Below are positions 31,948-46,121 of a stretch of 64,000 nucleotides of DNA, in pieces; positions within the stretch are counted from its first letter, which is position 1, and the number at the start of each line of letters is the position of its first letter. The notes below the pieces were generated by a model that made no database searches, was not told the origin of the DNA, and saw only the letters and a program-made list of their open reading frames with translations. Origin of the DNA: a virus (Duplodnaviria; Heunggongvirae; Uroviricota; Caudoviricetes); the IMG/VR virus record IMGVR_UViG_2574180019_000006. One strand, given 5' to 3'. The position numbers and the translations under genes are program-made.

Positions 31948-33177
31948 ATGATAATTGAACAAATAACCCCTTGCTCGGAGCTTGGAATGACTGATACCGC
32001 TTTTTCAAAATCGTTACAAAAAGAAGTCGATCCTGAGCAGTACTTGGCGCTAAAGAATTTAGATGACAGCTCGGTTCATGCTATTGCCCGTGACGATATC
32101 ATCTGCCCCATTTGCAAAGTTGGAGGTGGTTCGTTCGTTAGAGCCACTAGGAATGGTGGCTATCACAAGAAGGCGCATTTCAGATTTACCGGTGAAGATG
32201 GTCAAGGCCATCATCCATCATGTGATTTCTATGGAGATAGATTAACATCTGAGGTGAAGCAGCACCTTGTCTCATTCACAAAAGATCGAACAAAGTATTC
32301 GCAGGTAATACGAAAGCTGGTCTGTGCCGGCATACAGGAAGGGATATTTACTCAAGAAAAAATGTGGCAGATGAGGGAATGGTTCTTCAATAAGCGAAAG
32401 GATTCCACATTTGAAATATGGTTAGAAAGCGAGCATTTAGACTGGCTTTATTATATTAGTGGGTTACGTGATGCATATCTAGCATGGACAACTCCTGATA
32501 TTCTACCTTTCGCGCCCATTCAGGTTACTGTCCCTGGTTTTTCTTGGAGGCGTGCGATTGACAAAGAGGTGCTAAGAGTTCACATCAAGACTCTCCAGCA
32601 ATTGCGTGAAATTTCAGTCTCACATAGTGACATTGCTGTAATCTTAGAACACATAAACAATAATCGTGACCGCACAATTCTCGATCCATCGCATTTGGAG
32701 GACGAGATAAGTAAGACCTATAAGCTTACTAGTTTTGTGATGGGCAATTACATTGAGTTTCAGACAAAAACGGTTAGCGACAGAGCATACGGGGAAGCTA
32801 AGTTTCTGGCATTTGCAGCACTTTTGTTGTTCGTGTCAGATTGGGACCTCAACATTGCTATTGGTAAGTTTTCTAAGATTGCCAGAGTGAAGGAGGTTGA
32901 TGACATGCTGGCTGGTAATTTCATTGGTCTTAATCCTTACTTCCGATACGACCTGGCTAATGCAGTGAAGAGATTGCAGGATAACTGGCCGATTGAATAC
33001 CAAGAGTTGGAGCATTGGAATGTTGAGAAATCCATGCGTGACGCATATGAAAAGTGGCGTGCGACAGAGCCTGAATTCGCTCCACCCCTATTGCCAGACT
33101 TGTATATTGCCAAACATGAGAAAGAAGTCGCACAAGACGAGCAAGTCAGGCAGTGGATTAAGAACGGGGATGTTTGA
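31948..33177 (+). CDS. hypothetical protein with N-terminal Cys/His zinc-ribbon-like motif (alternative start 31987)
   Basis: 409-aa ORF; CPICK...HHPSCDF cluster; AT-rich upstream region without the phage-type leader; ggag RBS before ATG 31987. Confidence 0.5.
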   Translation: MIIEQITPCSELGMTDTAFSKSLQKEVDPEQYLALKNLDDSSVHAIARDDIICPICKVGGGSFVRATRNGGYHKKAHFRFTGEDGQGHHPSCDFYGDRLTSEVKQHLVSFTKDRTKYSQVIRKLVCAGIQEGIFTQEKMWQMREWFFNKRKDSTFEIWLESEHLDWLYYISGLRDAYLAWTTPDILPFAPIQVTVPGFSWRRAIDKEVLRVHIKTLQQLREISVSHSDIAVILEHINNNRDRTILDPSHLEDEISKTYKLTSFVMGNYIEFQTKTVSDRAYGEAKFLAFAALLLFVSDWDLNIAIGKFSKIARVKEVDDMLAGNFIGLNPYFRYDLANAVKRLQDNWPIEYQELEHWNVEKSMRDAYEKWRATEPEFAPPLLPDLYIAKHEKEVAQDEQVRQWIKNGDV

Positions 33178-33299
33178 GTGTAATTAGCTTAATCAATCAG
33201 TTGATAATGGCGGTCACAATTTGATTCTTTTCTATAAGAATCCGTTGATCGCCACTACTCCCCTTCCATAGCTGCAATCATACCCTTAAATATCAATAG

Positions 33300-34100
33300 G
33301 TTATGGTTGTTTATACAAATAAGAAAACAACTAAATAACAGATCAACGAAACGTCAACGCTTTCACCCGATTTGGTCTAAAAAATTGACGTTTTCACACA
33401 TCACTTCTTATACCCGTAACTCTACGCAGCAGACAGCGCCACAGCGTCCAATTTTCACCACAGACGACCCAACACACTACCAACAAAAACACACGCTCAA
33501 AATCGCTCCCGTTGCGTTACACAACCATATAAACAACTTATTTTCAGGCATAACAAAACAACTAAATAACACACATGCCATTCCCAAAAACAACCAACCT
33601 CTTTATGGCAGGCTACCGAAAAGACCCACCTCTTCTCCCCAGGCTACCGGACAACCAACCTAACTTTCACAGGCAATCCGAAAACATTCATACGCGCAAT
33701 ACCCACGACACGCCATTCCCCAAACAGCGAAGAAACACCAGAATCACTGAAACCCCAACGAAGCCTGTAACCGCAAGGATTCTCTCAATCCCAAAAGACA
33801 CGAAACATAACAATCACGGGAAATACCATTACCCAATACACGAATAACTACAAAAGCCTTTCACACACTCCAGACAAACAACTCAAACACAATAACGAAA
33901 GGAATCGCCCACCTGCCATTACTCCATACACGGAGAAGAACAATCACCAAAACGACGAGAACACCCCATAGAAGAACCACCGCAAAACGAACGAAACCAC
34001 ATACACCGACAGAGAGAACAACACACCCAATTCACCAACAGAAATAGTCGCCGTATAGAACGTTCTGGAAGGAGTGAGCATTAACGCCTATAGAGAGGTT
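33300..34100. other. ORF-free, strongly strand-asymmetric (A+C-rich, G-poor on plus strand) region with internal short repeats
   Basis: No ORF >=60 aa on minus strand; plus-strand ORFs are low-complexity; repeated aaaacaactaaataaca units; composition visibly skewed. Confidence 0.5.
33590..33670. repeat. ~80-bp repeat R, copy 1 (caaccaacctc...caggctaccg...cccacct...ggctaccgg...aactttc)
   Basis: ~75% identical by eye to copy at 37115-37200. Confidence 0.45.
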
Positions 34101-34246
34101 GAGACAGATAAAAACAACATGTATAGCGAAGAAGCCAGGTATGTATAAGTGGGGAGGGAAGGAGGGGTGTCGCCTCCTTTTTCGTATTTATTCAACTCCT
34201 GATTTTATCCCCCCGTAACACCCCTACGGTCAGCCTTCGGTCCATA

Positions 34247-34385
34247 CAGGGAAAAGGTTGCATCCCGCTACAGAAACGGCTGGGTTGCCTTCGGGGAACG
34301 GCTGGGGATTTTCAGGGAAACGGTCGAGTTGCCTGTGTGGATTTCGGGAAAAGGCTCGATGCCGGTTCAGGAACGGCGGCGTACC
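34247..34385. repeat. Iteron-like tandem array 1: six degenerate ~22-bp units with core (C)AGGGAAA(A/C)GG(C/T)TG
   Basis: cagggaaaaggttgcat / cagaaacggctgggttgc / ggggaacggctgggg / cagggaaacggtcgag / cgggaaaaggctcgatg / caggaacggcggcg in direct orientation. Confidence 0.55.
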
Positions 34386-34710
34386 GGTATAGCGAGAGGG
34401 AGAGTTGCGGCTACCCACCTGTAATGTGCGGGAAGAAGAGAGGCGCTCACGTAGGCGGACTTGCTTACCGCTGGATTCCCTCTGAATGCCCAGCTACAGC
34501 GTAATTGTGCCAGACAGCCAACGGGGCACAATCGATTTCAGTAGGTTTTTGGGGAGAGGATTACTCTGCCACCAGCCACTTTCGGCCACTAAATCAGAAT
34601 AATGTAAAAAGTGTACTCGGTACTGAACCTGAAAACTCACTGCCAAAACCACATTCACCGGAATAAAATCCTTTTTCGCCTGTGCGTTATTGCGATAATA
34701 ACACCAACAA

Positions 34711-34727
34711 GTAAACAACATGTTTAG
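34711..34727. promoter_or_regulatory. Palindrome gtaaacaacatgtttag
   Basis: AAACAA-N-TTGTTT family upstream of ORF 34758. Confidence 0.4.
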
Positions 34728-34757
34728 ACGTTATATAAACGAAGTGAGGATGAAGAG

Positions 34758-34976
34758 ATGATTAAGATGCCTGTGACGGTTGAGGTGTGGGGCGTGGATT
34801 CCCTGGCTGAGTGTCTGGATGCAGTGGGGCCGGAGTTGTACCGCAAGTTGTGGTCGTTCGTCCCGGCAGAAGGGGAATCGCCCAAAGGGAAGGATATCTG
34901 GCACCTGCTGAGTGAAGATGAAAAGCGGGAGCTGGTGGACGCGGTACACAGCGAGTTCCCGGGCGACGAAGATTAA
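34758..34976 (+). CDS. hypothetical small protein (72 aa)
   Basis: RBS gaggatgaagag; preceded by conserved palindrome. Confidence 0.4.
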   Translation: MIKMPVTVEVWGVDSLAECLDAVGPELYRKLWSFVPAEGESPKGKDIWHLLSEDEKRELVDAVHSEFPGDED

Positions 34977-35114
34977 GAGTGAGGCCACCAGCACGGTGGC
35001 TTTTGTCGCTATTAACCTCCGGGCAGCGCAGCACCGTAACGATATACTTTGTGGCCGTTTTCTTACTGGTATTATTTACGCAATTCAGAAAACAACATGT
35101 TTAAGGATTGCGTT

Positions 35115-35444
35115 ATGTTTGCAAATATCGACATCAACCAAATCAAGAAAATGACTCAAAAAGAGTTTGACCAGTTTTATGAGTTAGAAGGTTGGTCTTC
35201 CACGCTGATCAATTCGCGCTGGGTGCTTGAGCTGATGACTCGTGATGATGCTCCTGCTTTGATTATTTGCGACCTGGGTGAAGATGCTGACTTTATGGAT
35301 ATGAGCGAATTTTGTGTGGACACATACAACCGCAGCCAGAAGTACTACTTCACATGCGATAGCGAGAATGACGTTATTTCTAAGGTCTATCTTCACCTCG
35401 TCCAGCATTGGGACGTTCAGGAGTTTCTTGAAGTATTCGAGTAA
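35115..35444 (+). CDS. hypothetical protein (~109 aa)
   Basis: ATG 35115 with RBS aagga 7 nt upstream; ORF track starts at TTG 35049; upstream promoter-like ttgtgg-N-tatttacgc and palindrome 35088-35105. Confidence 0.4.
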   Translation: MFANIDINQIKKMTQKEFDQFYELEGWSSTLINSRWVLELMTRDDAPALIICDLGEDADFMDMSEFCVDTYNRSQKYYFTCDSENDVISKVYLHLVQHWDVQEFLEVFE

Positions 35445-35597
35445 CCCCAACCAAAGCCAGCATTGCTGGCTTAATTTCTCTATAGCCGCAGGGAAGAACC
35501 TGCATATCGCTCATGCGCCTGATCAATATGCTTTGTAGCCGTTTTCTTACTGGTATTATTTACGCCATTGAGAAAACAAGTTGTTTACGGAGTTGTA

Positions 35598-35909
35598 ATG
35601 AAAAAATCATTGGTTCTTGGTCTGGACAAAGACCAGAAGAGAAAAGAGAAGCCTGCGCTGGTTGCTCAATTAACTTTGCTGGACATCGTTGCCAATGGAA
35701 CCTCTATTCGTCTGTTCCGTGAAACAGCGGTGTCTTTCGATAAAAACACCTTTACTCGTTATGTAATGAATGTTCGTCGCCAGCGTGGAAAAGGCTGGGT
35801 GGCATTTCAAAGAATGTGGCCGGAACATCAGCTCGAACTGGCTTTGATGGAAGTTAACCGCGTGGCCCAGCAAGAGATTCAGAGAGCATCAGTGATGGCA
35901 ATAGCCTGA
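35598..35909 (+). CDS. hypothetical protein (~103 aa)
   Basis: ATG 35598 with RBS acggag; ORF track starts at TTG 35568; upstream ~45-bp block duplicated from 35051-35090 plus palindrome 35572-35588. Confidence 0.45.
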   Translation: MKKSLVLGLDKDQKRKEKPALVAQLTLLDIVANGTSIRLFRETAVSFDKNTFTRYVMNVRRQRGKGWVAFQRMWPEHQLELALMEVNRVAQQEIQRASVMAIA

Positions 35910-35943
35910 TAATGTGCAAGTGGCAATTAGTCGACAGTACGAC

Positions 35944-35973
35944 AGCCCCGCCATCCTTACGGGGCTTTTTTGT
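35944..35973 (+). terminator. Rho-independent terminator
   Basis: agccccgccatccttacggggct hairpin followed by tttttgt. Confidence 0.6.
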
Positions 35974-35976
35974 ATT

Positions 35977-35992
35977 GTAAGTATATACTTAC
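35977..35992. promoter_or_regulatory. Perfect palindrome gtaagtatatacttac
   Basis: Recurrent palindromic element family; identical 16-mer at 56623-56638. Confidence 0.4.
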
Positions 35993-36035
35993 GATCATAG
36001 AATATAAAAATAACCAAAACACTACGGAGAGTGAA

Positions 36036-36431
36036 ATGACCGTTAAACGCGAAAAACTGACAGTTGATGTTTACTATGCCTCTGAAACCGCCGAAGGTAA
36101 GAATGTGGCAAAAATTACCGTTGTTACGTACAACACCGAAACTGGTGCCGAAGTCCAGGCCAGTACGATCGTTCGTAAAGGTGATGCCTCCGGCGGCGAG
36201 TACGCGACTCAATACCAGTCCATTCTCGATGCAACTGACCCGCTGCTGCTGAAAATCGAGAACTACTTCCGCCAGGTTGATGAAGAGGTGTTTGAAACCA
36301 TGATGAATATGGTTAACACCGTATTCGCCTCCAGCCTGAATACCAACACTACCTGGATTGGTCAGTACGGCCTGCGCATTACCTCTGGCATTCCTGCCGA
36401 CACCTTAATCCCTGAAAGCGTATTCGCTTAA
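36036..36431 (+). CDS. hypothetical protein (~131 aa)
   Basis: ATG 36036 preceded by acggagag; followed by terminator ggcgcgtaaaccgcgcc-tttt. Confidence 0.45.
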   Translation: MTVKREKLTVDVYYASETAEGKNVAKITVVTYNTETGAEVQASTIVRKGDASGGEYATQYQSILDATDPLLLKIENYFRQVDEEVFETMMNMVNTVFASSLNTNTTWIGQYGLRITSGIPADTLIPESVFA

Positions 36432-36548
36432 TCCTCTTTAAATGGCGCGTAAACCGCGCCATTTTATTAAGCCCGATAACAATTTGTTTTCTGCCTTATC
36501 TGATTTGTGAAAATGATTTCACTGAAGCAACTTAATAAGGAAACCATC

Positions 36549-36923
36549 ATGGGACTTGATATCTATATCGAGACACAGCCTAAAAACGATCTGAATAACG
36601 AGGCATCCAGAAAGCAGGTTGCTTACTTCCGTAAGTTCAATGCGCTCGTTGGGTGGATGGAGCGCAACGTAGGTGAAGTCGAAAATTGTGAGCTTTTAGA
36701 ATTAACGATGAATGACATTTGTTTTCTGAAGGCTCATTTGATGCACATAAACGAAAGTAATTGCGAAGAGTACTTGCCTACCCGGGAAGGTTTTTTCTTC
36801 GGCAGTCAGGAGTACGATGAAGGTTACTGGCATGATGTGGGGCAGTTGAAAGAGCTTGTGGAAGATCTGATTAAGAACCACGACTTTCACAATAACAGAC
36901 TGACCTTCTGCGCCTGGTGGTAA
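36549..36923 (+). CDS. hypothetical protein (~124 aa)
   Basis: ATG 36549 with RBS aaggaaacc; palindrome gataacaatttgttttc at 36475-36491. Confidence 0.45.
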   Translation: MGLDIYIETQPKNDLNNEASRKQVAYFRKFNALVGWMERNVGEVENCELLELTMNDICFLKAHLMHINESNCEEYLPTREGFFFGSQEYDEGYWHDVGQLKELVEDLIKNHDFHNNRLTFCAWW

Positions 36924-36925
36924 AT

Positions 36926-37069
36926 ATGGGCGATTTCAAGAAACGCCTGAAGGAAAGAGCCGAGATGGTCAGAAAGCAAAACGCCTCTTCTGTCATCAGA
37001 TACGCAAGGCAGTTTAGTCGCAACAACAAATCAGTTGAGGAAAAGATCCTTAGCGTAATCGTGCGATAA
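36926..37069 (+). CDS. hypothetical small basic protein (47 aa)
   Basis: Not in ORF track; ATG 3 nt after upstream stop; followed by hairpin aggccatcagcattggtggcct. Confidence 0.3.
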   Translation: MGDFKKRLKERAEMVRKQNASSVIRYARQFSRNNKSVEEKILSVIVR

Positions 37070-37114
37070 TTATTAAGGCCATCAGCATTGGTGGCCTTAA
37101 ATGACCATCTTGTT

Positions 37115-37200
37115 TCCCGCAGGCTAAAAACACCAACCTCTTACCTCCAGGCAACCGACAAACCCACCTGTTCCCGTCCGGCTACCGCAACTTTCCACTT
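37115..37200. repeat. ~80-bp repeat R, copy 2
   Basis: Matches 33590-33670 by eye (caccaacctctt...caggcaaccga...cccacct...ggctaccgc..aactttcc). Confidence 0.45.
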
Positions 37201-37273
37201 TGACGCCTTATTCGTACAACGATAATTAACACCAACAAGAAAACAATTTGTTATTTACGATAAGGAATTAATC

Positions 37274-37756
37274 ATGAATTTTATCGCTACTGTAAACGCA
37301 CCCGCACATGGCAATATCGCTGTAACGTTCTCTGACATTGAAAAACGAGTACTTGGTGCATGGCGCGACAATGAGACGGTAGAACTGTCAGCACAAGAAA
37401 AATGCATTATTGCACGCGACATCATTGGCAATCGTCGTTACTCGCGGGTATTTGAGAAAGCGTATGTGGTAAATTCTGGATTCGGAACGTTCGTCTTTCC
37501 GGTGCGCTCCGGGCGATTCTGCCAGTCCAAGCTGATTGAGTTCGCTACGCAGATTTCTTTCTGGATTAAAACTCAATCGTCGTTCAAATTTTCCGACGAT
37601 GAAGCAGTATCGCAGGGGATGCGGATCGCCAACAATGCAATTAAATGCAAAAACATTACGTATACCGCTGGCGTTGATACATGGAAACTGTTTTGCGCTA
37701 ACTTTATGCTGAATGTATACGCAAGCAACCGCATCCACATCCTTGATGGCGTGTAA
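37274..37756 (+). CDS. hypothetical protein (160 aa)
   Basis: ORF with palindrome gaaaacaatttgttat 20 nt upstream; terminator agagggccagaaacggccctttctc after stop. Confidence 0.45.
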   Translation: MNFIATVNAPAHGNIAVTFSDIEKRVLGAWRDNETVELSAQEKCIIARDIIGNRRYSRVFEKAYVVNSGFGTFVFPVRSGRFCQSKLIEFATQISFWIKTQSSFKFSDDEAVSQGMRIANNAIKCKNITYTAGVDTWKLFCANFMLNVYASNRIHILDGV

Positions 37757-37805
37757 CTGAGAAGAGGGCCAGAAACGGCCCTTTCTCTATAGCCACCAGC
37801 TGCCG

Positions 37806-37925
37806 CAGGGAAATTTTCAGAAACGGCGAGGAACGTATTCATGAGCCGACGGGGAACGGCCAGGATTTTTTCGGGAAACGGCTGCATTTGCCTTTGTGTA
37901 GAAAAAACATCGGGAAGCTGGTGGA
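37806..37925. repeat. Iteron-like tandem array 2 (agggaaatttt / agaaacggcgagg / ggggaacggccagg / cgggaaacggctgcat / gggaagctggtgg)
   Basis: Same GGGAAACGG-type core as array at 34247-34385, direct orientation, ~3.5 kb apart; single related unit also at ~35497-35513. Confidence 0.5.
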
Positions 37926-37929
37926 ATCC

Positions 37930-38360
37930 AACCAGCGGTTGTCGGACAGGTGAGCGGGGAAAATTATGATGACTTTCGTCACCTGAGACATCCAGATTTC
38001 TTTCGTAGCATAATCACATACGTGATTAAGTGGTGTGATTATGTGAAAAATCACGCGCACATAATACGCGAGCGGATACGGAACAAAACAAAATGCCGAT
38101 CCGCGCCGACAAATAAACGCGGATCATAAAGCAAGACTAAAAGCCAATGATTAACTATGCGCTATAACGCGTTTTAAGCGCGTTAATGTGTTAAGTAATG
38201 GGTATGTACTGGCAAGGATATAAAAGCGCGTCTATGGCGTTATTTTGGCGCTTATTTTTATGTTGTTGGAGTGAGTTAAAGACAATAAAAAACGCGCCAT
38301 CAATGGCGCGTTATTGTGGAAGTATTGGAAACGAAAAAAGCGCCCATAGTGGGCGCTCGA
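37930..38360. other. AT-rich non-coding region with multiple GC-cored hairpins (gcgccatcaatggcgc, gcgcccatagtgggcgc, acgcgttttaagcgcgt)
   Basis: No ORF; at least four related palindromes (another copy at ~38838-38855); upstream end of minus-strand gene block. Confidence 0.4.
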
Positions 38361-39812: not shown

Positions 39813-40337
39813 TTAAAATGGAAGGATTCGTTCAACCCAATCGAAGAAAACAAGTATTTTTCTGCCGTCTTCTAACTTAAGAGTGACCTGGCAAGCATCA
39901 ACGCCTCTTGACACCCCTTCTATTTCACGACCGTCTGTCATGTAGACCCTTATAGATTGGTCGTTTTGATAAGCCTTGCGACATATCGCAAAAAAGTCAC
40001 GGCGTGATGGCTGATTGTCAACATAGTCTGGATGTATTGTTAGCCTACCTTTGAACTCGCGAGCAATGTCATCGATTACACCTGATTCAATTGTGCTAAT
40101 GCGCTCAAGTGGGAGTCTTATACGATTTTCTTTATCATATGGAATCGGGCATAAATCTAGCTTATTGCGTGAAGGCATTGTCCCCTGAACGTACATGCAA
40201 AACACCTGACCGTCTTCAAGCGTGACTCTTACAGGAATGTTGTTCTTCCGCCAGAACATAAGTATGTTCTCAGCATGTTCGTAGTCTCGCGGCCAGACTT
40301 CAGCCGGTATGCCGTAGGTGATGTCCAATGTTCTCAT
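39813..40337 (-). CDS. hypothetical protein (174 aa), AT-rich cassette
   Basis: ATG overlaps stop of upstream gene (ATGA); RBS aagag; internal duplicated beta-rich segments (VRVTLEDGQVF / VTLKLEDGRKI). Confidence 0.5.
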   Translation of the reverse strand: MRTLDITYGIPAEVWPRDYEHAENILMFWRKNNIPVRVTLEDGQVFCMYVQGTMPSRNKLDLCPIPYDKENRIRLPLERISTIESGVIDDIAREFKGRLTIHPDYVDNQPSRRDFFAICRKAYQNDQSIRVYMTDGREIEGVSRGVDACQVTLKLEDGRKILVFFDWVERILPF

Positions 40338-44100: not shown

Positions 44101-44121
44101 ATAAGTAAGTGATTACTTAAT
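44101..44121. promoter_or_regulatory. Palindrome ataagtaagtgattacttaat in divergent promoter region
   Basis: Recurrent palindromic element family between divergently transcribed helicase and ParB-like genes. Confidence 0.35.
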
Positions 44122-44818
44122 GGATTGTAGCAATAAAATGGATGTAAAAATCACGATTTTGCAGGTTGATGTTGCCAACCTTCGCCCGAATACCTGGAAC
44201 ACCAATTCGGTTGGTGCGCAGAATTTTGAAAAACTGAAAGGTTCTATCGAAAAATTGGGCTTTTTTAAGCCAATTTTGGCTCGTGAACTTGAAGATGGAT
44301 TTTTTGAAATCCTCGGCGGCGAACATCGCTGGCGTGCCGCTATTGAGCAAGGAATTTCAACGGTTCCGGTGCTTTCTGTGGGCAAAATTAGCGATGTCGT
44401 AGCTAAACAGATGTCACTGGTGGACAACGAGCGATACGGTGAAGACGACCAAATCGCATTGCAACGCTTCATTGAAGAAATTCAGTCAGAGCTTGACTAT
44501 CAACTGTCTGAAATCGCCCCGTATGACGACGAAATCTCGATGGTTTTAGCAAAAGAGGCGGCAATCGACCTTGAAGCACTGGAGGCGTTGTCTCGTGGTA
44601 GTGATGAGCCTGTCGATACCGACAAACGAGAGAAAACCGAACGTGTGGGTGCGGAACATCAGACCATGCGCTTCAAAGTAACTTTCGATGCGTCAGATCG
44701 TGTTGCAGAAACCATAAAAAACATCATCAAAGAGCAGGCTATTAACACCGGTAATGAAATGGAGAACGCTGGTGAGGCTCTGGTGTGGCTGGTTGACTAC
44801 TACAAGGAGCGTATGTAA
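44120..44818 (+). CDS. ParB-like N-terminal nuclease-domain protein 1
   Basis: ParBc motif region ILGGEHRWRAAIEQG; 232 aa. Confidence 0.6.
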   Translation: MDCSNKMDVKITILQVDVANLRPNTWNTNSVGAQNFEKLKGSIEKLGFFKPILARELEDGFFEILGGEHRWRAAIEQGISTVPVLSVGKISDVVAKQMSLVDNERYGEDDQIALQRFIEEIQSELDYQLSEIAPYDDEISMVLAKEAAIDLEALEALSRGSDEPVDTDKREKTERVGAEHQTMRFKVTFDASDRVAETIKNIIKEQAINTGNEMENAGEALVWLVDYYKERM

Positions 44819-45486
44819 TGACCAAAAAGTTTGAAATCGTATATCGCGACCCGGCAGATCTTATTCCCTATGAGATGAATGCCAAAAAGCATGATGAACA
44901 GCAGATCCGAGATCTAGCCGCAGCCATTAAAAAGCGCGGATTTGACCAGCCAATTACGGTCGATAAGAACGACGTAATTATTACTGGCCACGGCCGCCGT
45001 GAGGCTGCAATTTTTGCTGGACTTGAGCGCGTACCGGTTATTGTTCGCGATGATCTCAGTGATGACGAGGTTCGTGCGAAGCGCCTTGAAGATAACCGAC
45101 TTGCCAGCATTGATTACGATGCAATTAAGCTACAGAAAGAGCTTGAGTCGCTTGTTCTGGACGATATCGAGGTTTTCGGCTTTGAAGAGCGTGAGTTGAA
45201 TGTTCTCGTTGGCAGTATGACAGAAGAAATGGACACCGACTCGCTAGTTATCGATCTTGGCGAAGAAACTAAACGACAGAAGGATGAACACACCGAGATC
45301 AGTCGTGAAGTTGCAGCGGAAGAAGTACGTGTTGTCGACGTATTGGGCTTTAAAACGCTCCCTGCTGGCTCTGCCATTGTTGTTGGTGATTTGCTTGCCC
45401 ACATGGAAGAAATGACGGGAGAAAGCGGGGTAGACGCATTTGTGGCATATGCGGAGAAGATCTCTTCCGGGGAGATGGCTGCATGA
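44818..45486 (+). CDS. ParB-like N-terminal nuclease-domain protein 2
   Basis: ITGHGRREAAIFAGLERVPVIV ParBc motif; RBS aaggagcg. Confidence 0.65.
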   Translation: MTKKFEIVYRDPADLIPYEMNAKKHDEQQIRDLAAAIKKRGFDQPITVDKNDVIITGHGRREAAIFAGLERVPVIVRDDLSDDEVRAKRLEDNRLASIDYDAIKLQKELESLVLDDIEVFGFEERELNVLVGSMTEEMDTDSLVIDLGEETKRQKDEHTEISREVAAEEVRVVDVLGFKTLPAGSAIVVGDLLAHMEEMTGESGVDAFVAYAEKISSGEMAA

Positions 45487-46121
45487 GCAAATACATCATC
45501 AACGTATCGTTTCAGACACGCGTAAATAAAACCACGCGCACGTTGGAAATCGCTGAGTCGTTCGGGCTTGGCCTGGACGAAAAAGAGTGGACGCTTTACG
45601 ACAATCTGGAGCTGGAAGTGAAGCAGGGCGATGTGGTGTACATTACCGGCCAATCCGGTTCCGGCAAATCCGTTGTGCTGCGCGAGCTGCAACACCAGAT
45701 GAAGGATGAAGGGCTATCTGTGGCCTCCATCGATGATTTTACCTTCGATAATGAGGTTAACGTCATTGACCAACTGGGCAAAACTACCAGTGATGCGCTT
45801 GGGTTGTTATCTATGGCTGGTCTGAACGATGCATATCTGTTTGTTCGCAAGCCTTCTGAAATGTCAGACGGTCAGAAATATCGTCTCAAGATTGCCAAAC
45901 TGATTGAGTCAGGCGCTAAAGTGTGGGCTGCTGACGAGTTCGGCGCTGTTCTCGACCGTGTAACCGCTCAGGTTGTGGCATCTAACCTCCAGCGTGCCGC
46001 TCGAAAGGTTGGTGCGACGGTAATGGTGGCGACGACTCACGAAGACCTGAAGAACGCGCTGCGCCCGGATATGCAGATCACCAAGCACTACAAAGAACGC
46101 GTGAAGGTGGAATATGCCTGA
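45483..46121 (+). CDS. ABC-type ATPase (stand-alone nucleotide-binding domain)
   Basis: Walker A GQSGSGKS, signature-like MSDGQKYR, Walker B WAADEFGAVLD, H-loop ATTHED. Confidence 0.6.
   Translation: MSKYIINVSFQTRVNKTTRTLEIAESFGLGLDEKEWTLYDNLELEVKQGDVVYITGQSGSGKSVVLRELQHQMKDEGLSVASIDDFTFDNEVNVIDQLGKTTSDALGLLSMAGLNDAYLFVRKPSEMSDGQKYRLKIAKLIESGAKVWAADEFGAVLDRVTAQVVASNLQRAARKVGATVMVATTHEDLKNALRPDMQITKHYKERVKVEYA

Follow-up and report, generated by a model that had tools for sequence, protein, structure and literature searches.

A conserved non-coding module of SSU5/pHCM2-type phage-plasmids

Positions 33178-34757 of a 64,000-nucleotide stretch of a Caudoviricetes virus (IMG/VR record IMGVR_UViG_2574180019_000006; the whole stretch is called the window below) are the first module of a non-coding or regulatory island with two modules, part of the backbone that SSU5/pHCM2-type phage-plasmids conserve. 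The module (1.3 kb) is among the best-conserved non-coding DNA of this family. It contains a strongly A+C-rich domain with a promoter (P2) at its start and a hairpin after it, together with two classes of direct repeats, B and C, and it most likely makes an unstructured, G/U-poor RNA. Tentatively, and with less than even confidence, we favour the reading that this RNA is single-stranded, is produced in the lytic phase and would act by protein binding, with the flanking arrays serving as DNA control sites. A non-coding RNA is better supported than an origin or a centromere.

The window is an SSU5/pHCM2-like phage-plasmid. The region shows 98.5% identity to Escherichia coli plasmid pSTEC409_1 and 92-97% identity to the phages CMS-2020a, Cyrano (pLF82) and PhiR41_1. 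A blastn search of PLSDB revealed the module in 839 plasmids, among them those of Klebsiella (431), Escherichia (224), Enterobacter (90), Salmonella (49), Citrobacter (25) and Cronobacter (9), and it was present in 246 of 5426 complete E. coli genomes (4.5%), plasmid-borne in all of them. The stretch of pSTEC409_1 that matches positions 33178-34757 carries no feature in the RefSeq annotation, and a gap of equal size (~1.4 kb) is found at the same place in SSU5, pHCM2 and one Enterobacter plasmid. A description of the module was not found in the literature searched.

All lineages keep one layout, which can be expressed as offsets from the anchor GGCGGTCAC at window position 33209 (Table 1). Close relatives diverge in the module by 1-5% and distant ones by 18-40%, which does not exceed the divergence of the flanking protein genes. 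Exchanges between A and C are the top substitution class in the skewed part and a minor class in the C region. By megablast, only 33894-34064 is detectable in SSU5 and in the Salmonella, Enterobacter, Citrobacter and Cronobacter elements.

The layout was also followed into pW18-2-b of Moellerella wisconsensis (Morganellaceae), a distant SSU5-like element with no detectable nucleotide similarity to the window. Its syntenic, unannotated gap holds ~650 bp at 71-76% A+C on the sense strand and presents, in this order, a P2-like promoter (ATCAACG..GTCAACG..TTGATC-18-TACACA), the A+C-rich stretch, three B units, a hairpin followed by GTATTTAT, and C-like units GGAAACGGC. About 3.2 kb further on lies a second module of B units, a gene, a terminator and C units, the gene being non-homologous to the 160-aa gene enclosed by the second module of the window. 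The spacing of the repeats differs in Moellerella (33-40 bp for C, 26-27 bp for B), and its second C array holds a Chi site, as does the one here. Since composition and layout persist without nucleotide similarity, both are under selection, and not sequence alone.

Coding capacity and base composition

The preliminary description of this stretch, made from the letters alone, had called it free of open reading frames (ORFs) and strand-skewed, and both statements were borne out. On the plus strand, only ORFs driven by composition occur, namely 33307-33663 (118 aa) and 33575-33847 (90 aa), the rest being of at most 75 aa; they arise because stop codons are depleted by the base composition. Indels of 15 nt and 8 nt, which break reading frames, separate the lineages in this region. 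There is no annotated feature under the module match in the 246 complete E. coli genomes or in the plasmid records; some phage records carry an annotation for the two composition-driven ORFs.

The segment 33300-34060 consists of A, C, G and T at fractions of 0.40, 0.31, 0.12 and 0.16, respectively. Over ~0.65-0.75 kb, the plus strand has 71-76% A+C, which is 7 standard deviations (SD) over the window mean, and the maximum per 400 nt is 0.757 as compared with a mean of 0.496 (SD 0.036). Calculation of the skews gave values of -0.44 to -0.53 for GC and +0.29 to +0.60 for AT. The A+C richness is kept in SSU5 and pHCM2 and in the elements of Enterobacter, Klebsiella and Cronobacter.

That the stretch is decayed coding sequence or a neutral spacer with chance repeats is barely credible. 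The annotation of the two ORFs in some phage records would fit such an origin. It is countered by a divergence as low as that of the flanking genes, by the frame-breaking indels, by an architecture that is conserved position for position in over 800 plasmids and still recognisable in Moellerella, and by repeat statistics far beyond chance. The A+C-rich segment was also considered as a decayed paralogue of the 160-aa gene, and this was rejected, as similarity by tblastn and blastn was confined to the arrays.

Promoter, hairpin and predicted transcript

P2 is strongly conserved. Across 51 unique variants, its -35 element is TTGACG in 44 and TTGATG in seven, its -10 element is TATACC in 39 and TATATC in ten, and the spacer is 18 nt in all. 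The -35 element sits in the right arm of an inverted repeat, AACGTCAA (33350-33357) and TTGACGTT (33385-33392), which is a plausible operator. At the other end, RNAalifold analysis of 13 variants gave for the hairpin at 34156-34183 nine base pairs, two of them with compensatory changes, together with many G.U pairs, which can form on the plus strand only. The neighbouring genes and terminators are all on the plus strand.

The predicted RNA between these signals (776 nt) folds at -119.6 kcal/mol, which corresponds to z = -0.98 against shuffled sequences and thus shows no structure beyond that of shuffles. Its composition is like that of a site at which Rho loads. A structured RNA was rejected on this value together with those for the minus strand (+1.59) and the C region (+1.82) and on the Rfam searches, in which the whole window gave no hit at gathering score and 33000-38000 none at E <= 5. 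An antisense regulator was likewise rejected, with no complementarity elsewhere in the plasmid and no chromosomal match in the 5426 E. coli genomes.

Expression was assessed from transcriptomes of LF82 lysogens carrying Cyrano. CYRAN_103, an ORF call over the 5' half, was at the detection floor (0 fpkm) in two of five conditions and otherwise low, and CYRAN_104, over the hairpin and the C array, was low (PMC9928086 Table S1). The upstream CYRAN_102 stood at log2 6-9, falling to the floor in CYRAN_103, and both CYRAN_114 (FljA-like) and CYRAN_111 (the 160-aa gene) were moderately expressed (PMC9928086 Table S1). As the A+C-rich region is near-silent in lysogens, any RNA made from it would be specific to lytic growth. 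The long non-coding RNA that the preliminary description had offered as its alternative has the better support, from the promoter, the compensated hairpin and the persisting composition, but not from expression in the lysogens.

The same composition could serve as a giant Rho-dependent insulator, an oversized Rho utilisation (rut) site that would halt read-through from the upstream block and from P2, the RNA having no role in trans. This is improbable, although several properties fit. The ratio of C to G is 1.7-2.7 over 650-725 nt in four lineages (window, 0.88), with 2.7 for the predicted RNA of this element; YC dinucleotides number 14-16 per 100 nt (14 in the predicted RNA) compared with 9.8 in the window. 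The features expected of a rut site (more C than G, unstructured, untranslated, at least ~80 nt) are therefore present throughout these 650-725 nt in all four lineages, and across lineages it is composition that persists rather than sequence. The fall in expression from CYRAN_102 to CYRAN_103 is also in line with an insulator; however, the drop occurs already at block 1, the palindrome upstream of the A/C-rich part. Conserved motifs and repeats, an own promoter and an own hairpin are further properties that an insulator does not account for, and the downstream genes each have their own promoter. Known rut sites are roughly ten times shorter than this stretch.

Repeat arrays B and C

The six direct repeats noted in the preliminary description were located as six C units, starting at 34249, 34271, 34293, 34315, 34346 and 34368, with spacings of 22, 22, 22, 31 and 22 bp. 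This array (C1) was found in 51 of 52 unique variants, nearly always with spacings of 22 or 31 bp, and in PhiR41_1 exactly one 22-bp unit is deleted. Because 22 and 31 bp correspond to two or three helical turns, binding at the DNA level, on one face of the helix, is indicated. A related array had been proposed for 37806-37925, and a position weight matrix (PWM) built from the first array alone indeed recovered three clustered units there (C2), while 128 kb of shuffled sequence gave ~10 scattered hits; the alignment of C1 with C2 reached z = 10.5. The single unit previously placed at ~35497 proved weak, lying under the PWM threshold.

What had been described as an ~80-bp repeat upstream of each array resolves into B units, three of 31 bp at 33589-33682 (B1) and two or three at 37099-37190 (B2), with an alignment z of 15. 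B1 is present in all lineages, and B2 is kept in SSU5, Klebsiella, Cronobacter and Moellerella. In the 110.9-kb plasmid, high-scoring B and C units are confined to the two loci, all in plus orientation. B units as the reverse complement of C were rejected on an alignment z of about 1, with one suggestive PWM hit. Both Tandem Repeats Finder (TRF) and a crude k-mer scan were too insensitive for arrays as degenerate as these.

In both modules, the first C unit follows the first B unit at ~0.65-0.77 kb (E. coli, SSU5, Enterobacter, Cronobacter, Moellerella), and this distance is held regardless of whether the insert is the non-coding segment, the 160-aa gene or an unrelated 101-aa gene. C1 and C2 each come after a terminator hairpin. 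The 160-aa gene has its own promoter (TTGACG at 37200-37205, GATAAT at 37221-37226), and its product gave a confident structure model for which a fold search returned no match. We read the B and C arrays as paired control or architectural DNA sites for a candidate phage protein.

Candidate partners of the proposed RNA

The preferred reading can be put as a sequence of steps. During lytic development, the unit would be transcribed into a ~770-nt single-stranded, A/C-rich RNA, which would be bound by a single-strand-specific protein and act as a sponge or decoy. Both this ~0.7-kb unit and a small gene 3.5 kb downstream are flanked by B repeats (upstream) and C repeats (after the hairpin), which would probably control the two. 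The preferred partner would be the co-conserved FljA-family protein with its tandem Hfq fold, which is expressed in lysogens; Rho is the second candidate.

The FljA-family protein is a candidate partner on account of its fold, its conservation and the nature of the target of its relative. A diverged copy stands at the syntenic position in Moellerella, and the Klebsiella elements keep the gene. Klebsiella is non-flagellated, and the target there is therefore not fliC but probably encoded by the phage. Salmonella FljA reportedly binds the fliC mRNA leader and represses fliC. The block of fliC by FljA is at translation (PMC2652032). By hand count, A+C makes up 67% and G 13% of the 45 nt at the 3' end of this leader in E. 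coli. A 9-mer of the leader, ACCCAATAC, recurs within the repeated motif of the module, and Moellerella has it as CCCAATACGT; a shared 9-10-mer, (A)CCCAATAC(G), is found in three lineages. As the FljA relative represses via an A/C-rich leader, titration of the FljA-family repressor would release translation of its targets. As an observation of independent interest, the FljA-family 'flagellin repressors' are tandem Hfq-fold proteins that are kept by Klebsiella elements.

In its most explicit form, induction of the phage would lead to a ~0.77-kb, G/U-poor decoy RNA that titrates the FljA-family repressor or Rho and so switches translation or anti-termination of lytic genes; we assign this version only a low probability. 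A 2025 review of Rho does not contain the words 'decoy' or 'sponge' (PMC12360218).

Several observations weigh against an RNA acting by protein binding. The -10 element of P2 is weak, its position 6 not being T, for which reason the consensus scanner did not call the promoter. The hairpin is weak as well (consensus of -5.8 kcal/mol), and the SSU5 lineage has no U-tail. The lysogen RNA-seq, the sole transcriptome examined, is silent over the region. Local alignment to the fliC leader was not significant (p = 0.08-0.30) and gives no support to mimicry of it. A sponge for CsrA or for Hfq via ARN repeats was rejected, as the protein-binding motifs are not enriched beyond composition (GGA, p = 0.10-0.77; ARN runs, p = 0.44-0.65, against shuffles). 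As Rho should terminate a C-rich, untranslated RNA early, it is uncertain that a discrete product of 770 nt would arise. Finally, the helical-turn spacing of the C units indicates only that the arrays act as DNA and has no bearing on the RNA, and an intermediate of single-stranded DNA could benefit from the strand asymmetry just as well.

Replication origin and partition

The preliminary description had likened the arrays to binding sites of initiator or partition proteins. The idea of protein-binding sites is reasonable, the arrays being ordered and deeply conserved, and the part that concerns the origin of the plasmid replicon is refuted. That replicon, with a RepB-family initiator (RepA), is situated just left of the window, 32 kb left of the module. 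Its iterons, ACCGCTGACAGCATA, are present in 14 copies flanking repA, together with a GATC-rich stretch, in a P1-like arrangement. Scanning with the B and C PWMs gave nothing at the RepA replicon, and the iterons are unrelated to B and C in sequence. The cumulative GC skew of the whole plasmid was discarded as an origin signal, as it tracks gene orientation only.

An origin for the lytic cycle is possible but unlikely. In this case, the C and/or B arrays would be iterons for a phage initiator, forming two cis loci 3.5 kb apart, with the strand-asymmetric stretch promoting unwinding, strand-specific priming or RNA-primed initiation. Two arrays of one 13-bp unit in a single orientation, spaced by two or three helical turns and varying in unit number by whole units, would suit such a function, as would the conservation of two cis arrays (C1/C2, B1/B2) across lineages. 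The element encodes its own replication proteins (DnaE, DnaB-like helicase, primase, ligase, RNase HI, RecA-like and UvsW-like proteins), although a lytic origin has not been assigned to it, and P2 could provide activating transcription. On the other hand, no AT-rich unwinding element was found by either array (the GC content around C1 is 50-58%), no GATC occurs between 33342 and 35206, and no conserved DnaA box lies by the arrays, the one DnaA-like box in a C1 spacer being missing from SSU5. The arrays are distant from the helicase and primase genes, and Moellerella spaces their units differently (40 and 33 bp for C, 26-27 bp for B). Sequence prone to R-loops would be the reverse of the plus-strand RNA, which is rich in C and poor in G, and a leftward promoter was not found. 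A lytic origin also leaves the B/C pair around an ordinary small gene unexplained.

Less probable again are dispersed centromere or global-regulator sites, with B or C bound by the 117-aa partner of ParA or by two ParB_N proteins and serving partition and/or promoter control. The type Ib ParA (222 aa) and its 117-aa partner are encoded ~45 kb away (pSTEC409_1 97139-98166; L027 31140-32164). There is no obvious repeat array beside the parA operon, which leaves its centromere unassigned. Between Escherichia and Klebsiella, the 117-aa partner retains 90-100% identity, far above most backbone proteins, and its host distribution is the same as that of the module; a promoter follows B2 immediately, and the C arrays are intergenic. 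However, the region upstream of parA has no similarity to B1, B2 or C1 (z of -1.6 to +0.9), no B or C units lie near parA, and the co-distribution merely reflects the shared backbone. The ParB gene CYRAN_119 is near the floor in lysogens, when partition is needed, which makes the ParB_N proteins unlikely as the plasmid's partition system. Dispersed sites of this kind would also leave the A+C-rich domain unexplained. In the window, two consecutive ParB_N-domain proteins (44120-45486) and an ABC-type ATPase are encoded at 44120-46121, just upstream of the terminase genes.

Features of the module and its surroundings

The coordinates of the features are compiled in Table 1.

Table 1. Features of the two modules and of the FljA-family gene in the window; offsets are counted from the anchor GGCGGTCAC and apply to all lineages.
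Feature	Position	Strand	Offset	Description
Block 1	33208..33254	+	0	47-nt imperfect palindrome/stem-loop, TGGCGGTCA ... inner hairpin ... TGATCGCCA; just 3' of the upstream ORF stop
22-nt unit, copy 1	33319..33340	+		ATAAGAAAACAACTAAATAACA; repeat family D12
Promoter P2	33385..33414	+	+175	TTGACG, 18-nt spacer, TATACC; A-tract upstream
A+C-rich, G/T-poor domain	33400..34060	+		
Proposed untranslated RNA body	~33420 to ~34185	+		~770 nt
Degenerate operator-like palindrome	33531-33543		+321	AAACAACTTATTT; just before 22-nt copy 2
22-nt unit, copy 2	33550..33571	+		AAAACAACTAAATAACA; 95% identical to copy 1
Dispersed motif	33576..33942	+		(A)CGCCATTAC(C/T)CCA(A/T)A(C/T)ACGGAGAAGAACA; four copies
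Motif 'GCCATTAC...ACGGAGAAGAACA'			+370 to +755	4-6 copies
B1 array	33589..33682	+	+385 to +490	three tandem 30-31-bp units, ACC(A/C)ACCTCTT-N5-CAGGCTACCG
CCGTATAGA			+842 to +900	
Hairpin plus T-rich tail	34156..34195	+		GGAAGGAGG-ggtgtcg-CCTCCTTTTTCGTATTTATT; terminator scan; proposed transcript 3' end
C1 array	34249..34380	+	about +1040 to +1210	six GGGAAA(A/C)GGCTGG units; phased repeat GGGAAACGGCTGG
B2 array	37099..37190	+		2-3 B units, directly upstream of the 160-aa gene promoter
160-aa gene	37274..37756	+		between B2 and C2; hairpin 37766-37789 after it
C2 array	37806..37925	+		clear units 37818, 37851, 37873, plus degenerate ones
FljA-family protein	39813..40337	-		two tandem Hfq/Sm-like domains; full-length PF03614, E = 3e-80

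Block 1 is likely to be either the stem-loop that closes the upstream transcript at its 3' end or a site to which a dimer binds. RNAalifold gave 15 pairs at -11.5 kcal/mol, with an invariant outer stem and an inner stem that shifts register between lineages, and Pantoea elements without the remainder of the module still have block 1. In the dispersed motif, CCATT begins at 33578, 33713, 33826 and 33916, and the last copy lies in the most conserved 170 bp of the module.

The repeated 'aaaacaactaaataaca' units of the preliminary description correspond to the two copies of the 22-nt unit. This unit is related to the 'cataagAAAACAA..TGTTT' promoter/operator module of the phage and was also found in the 5' leader of a Moellerella gene, and the palindrome preceding its second copy is perfect in SSU5. 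The palindrome AAACA-N3-TGTTT occurs in the window in eight exact copies as compared with 0.08 expected (18976, 19705, 31440, 31491, 34713, 35090, 35574 and 47683), plus ten copies with one mismatch, and in promoters of early genes it overlaps the -35 element and/or lies ~10 nt downstream of the -10 element. Presumably, it serves a putative global regulator as operator, and the 'aaaacaactaaataaca' units look related to it. Operators of a CI-type repressor were rejected as an explanation, as the immunity region appears by eye to carry a different palindrome, GGTAAG..CTTACC.

Chi sites (GCTGGTGG, both strands) number 16 in 64 kb, where about two are expected. Five of them fall into 34.5-37.9 kb (34569, 34931, 34985, 37793 and 37917); the C2 unit at 37912-37924 includes one, and the C units themselves carry GCTGG.

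The ORF upstream of the module (409 aa, 31948-33177) belongs to PHROG 12525, gave no Pfam hit and has an invariant CPIC...HHPxC that suggests a zinc site. Cyrano, PhiR41_1 and the Cronobacter plasmid have other genes in its place. A scan of the genome collection for the protein returned four loci only, and two Pantoea-type elements share just block 1 and P2, with which the ORF travels there. Downstream, between the blocks of plus- and minus-strand genes, 37940-38360 is dense in hairpins and bidirectional terminators, with the palindrome AATCACATACGTGATT; weak, sub-threshold Rfam hits to small RNAs (Hrs1, isrK) were obtained there, and the region could hold a small RNA. In the LF82 transcriptomes, the 'hypothetical protein' CYRAN_43 (OV696614 40268-40822) was expressed ~720-fold over the prophage background. 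This locus, beside the integrase/repressor region, may be a mis-annotated abundant RNA.

Significance and comparison with known systems

SSU5/pHCM2-like phage-plasmids are common in clinical Enterobacteriaceae and can carry resistance genes, and the composition of the module is without obvious precedent. If an RNA decoy were confirmed, it would represent a new regulatory principle and a new layer of the lysis-lysogeny switch, and the first RNA sponge for an FljA/Hfq-fold protein or for Rho. If the module were instead an origin or a centromere, it would be the missing cis-element for understanding and engineering these elements.

A type III toxin-antitoxin locus, in which ToxI precedes ToxN, was rejected, as tandem RNA repeats preceding a ToxN-fold endoribonuclease were not found. 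Among DNA-based systems, P4 ori/crr and SPP1 oriL/oriR likewise have two arrays of one short direct repeat, a few kb apart and in the same orientation; the module differs in having no AT-rich region and no identified initiator, in lying away from the replication genes and in pairing the B and C classes at ~0.65-0.77 kb. The P1-type replicon (incC / repA / incA) shares phased direct repeats of ~20 bp, but this plasmid has such a replicon elsewhere, with unrelated iterons and without B or C units. Arrays at several intergenic or promoter-proximal loci are also known from the pSM19035 omega heptads and the dispersed N15 centromeres, whose unit length and sequence are unrelated to those here, and a link to the par operon was not found by sequence.

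Of the RNA-based systems, rut sites and Rho attenuators (lambda tR1; RARE of mgtCBR) are C-rich, G-poor, unstructured and untranslated like the stretch described here, which is ~10 times longer and contains conserved motifs as well as a promoter and a hairpin of its own. With FljA and the fliC leader in Salmonella phase variation, the module shares a full-length PF03614 protein, an unstructured, A/C-rich and G-poor target and the 9-mer named above, whereas the match is non-significant and the family is kept in Klebsiella elements. CsrB/CsrC, acting on CsrA, and CrcZ, acting on Hfq/Crc, are RNAs of several hundred nt with a repeated motif and a terminator at the end, encoded apart from their partner, and they titrate an RNA-binding translational repressor, as is proposed here. 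The module is set apart from them by the absence of GGA or ARN enrichment, of stem-loops and of Rfam membership, by its silence in the carrier state and by its extreme depletion of G and U.

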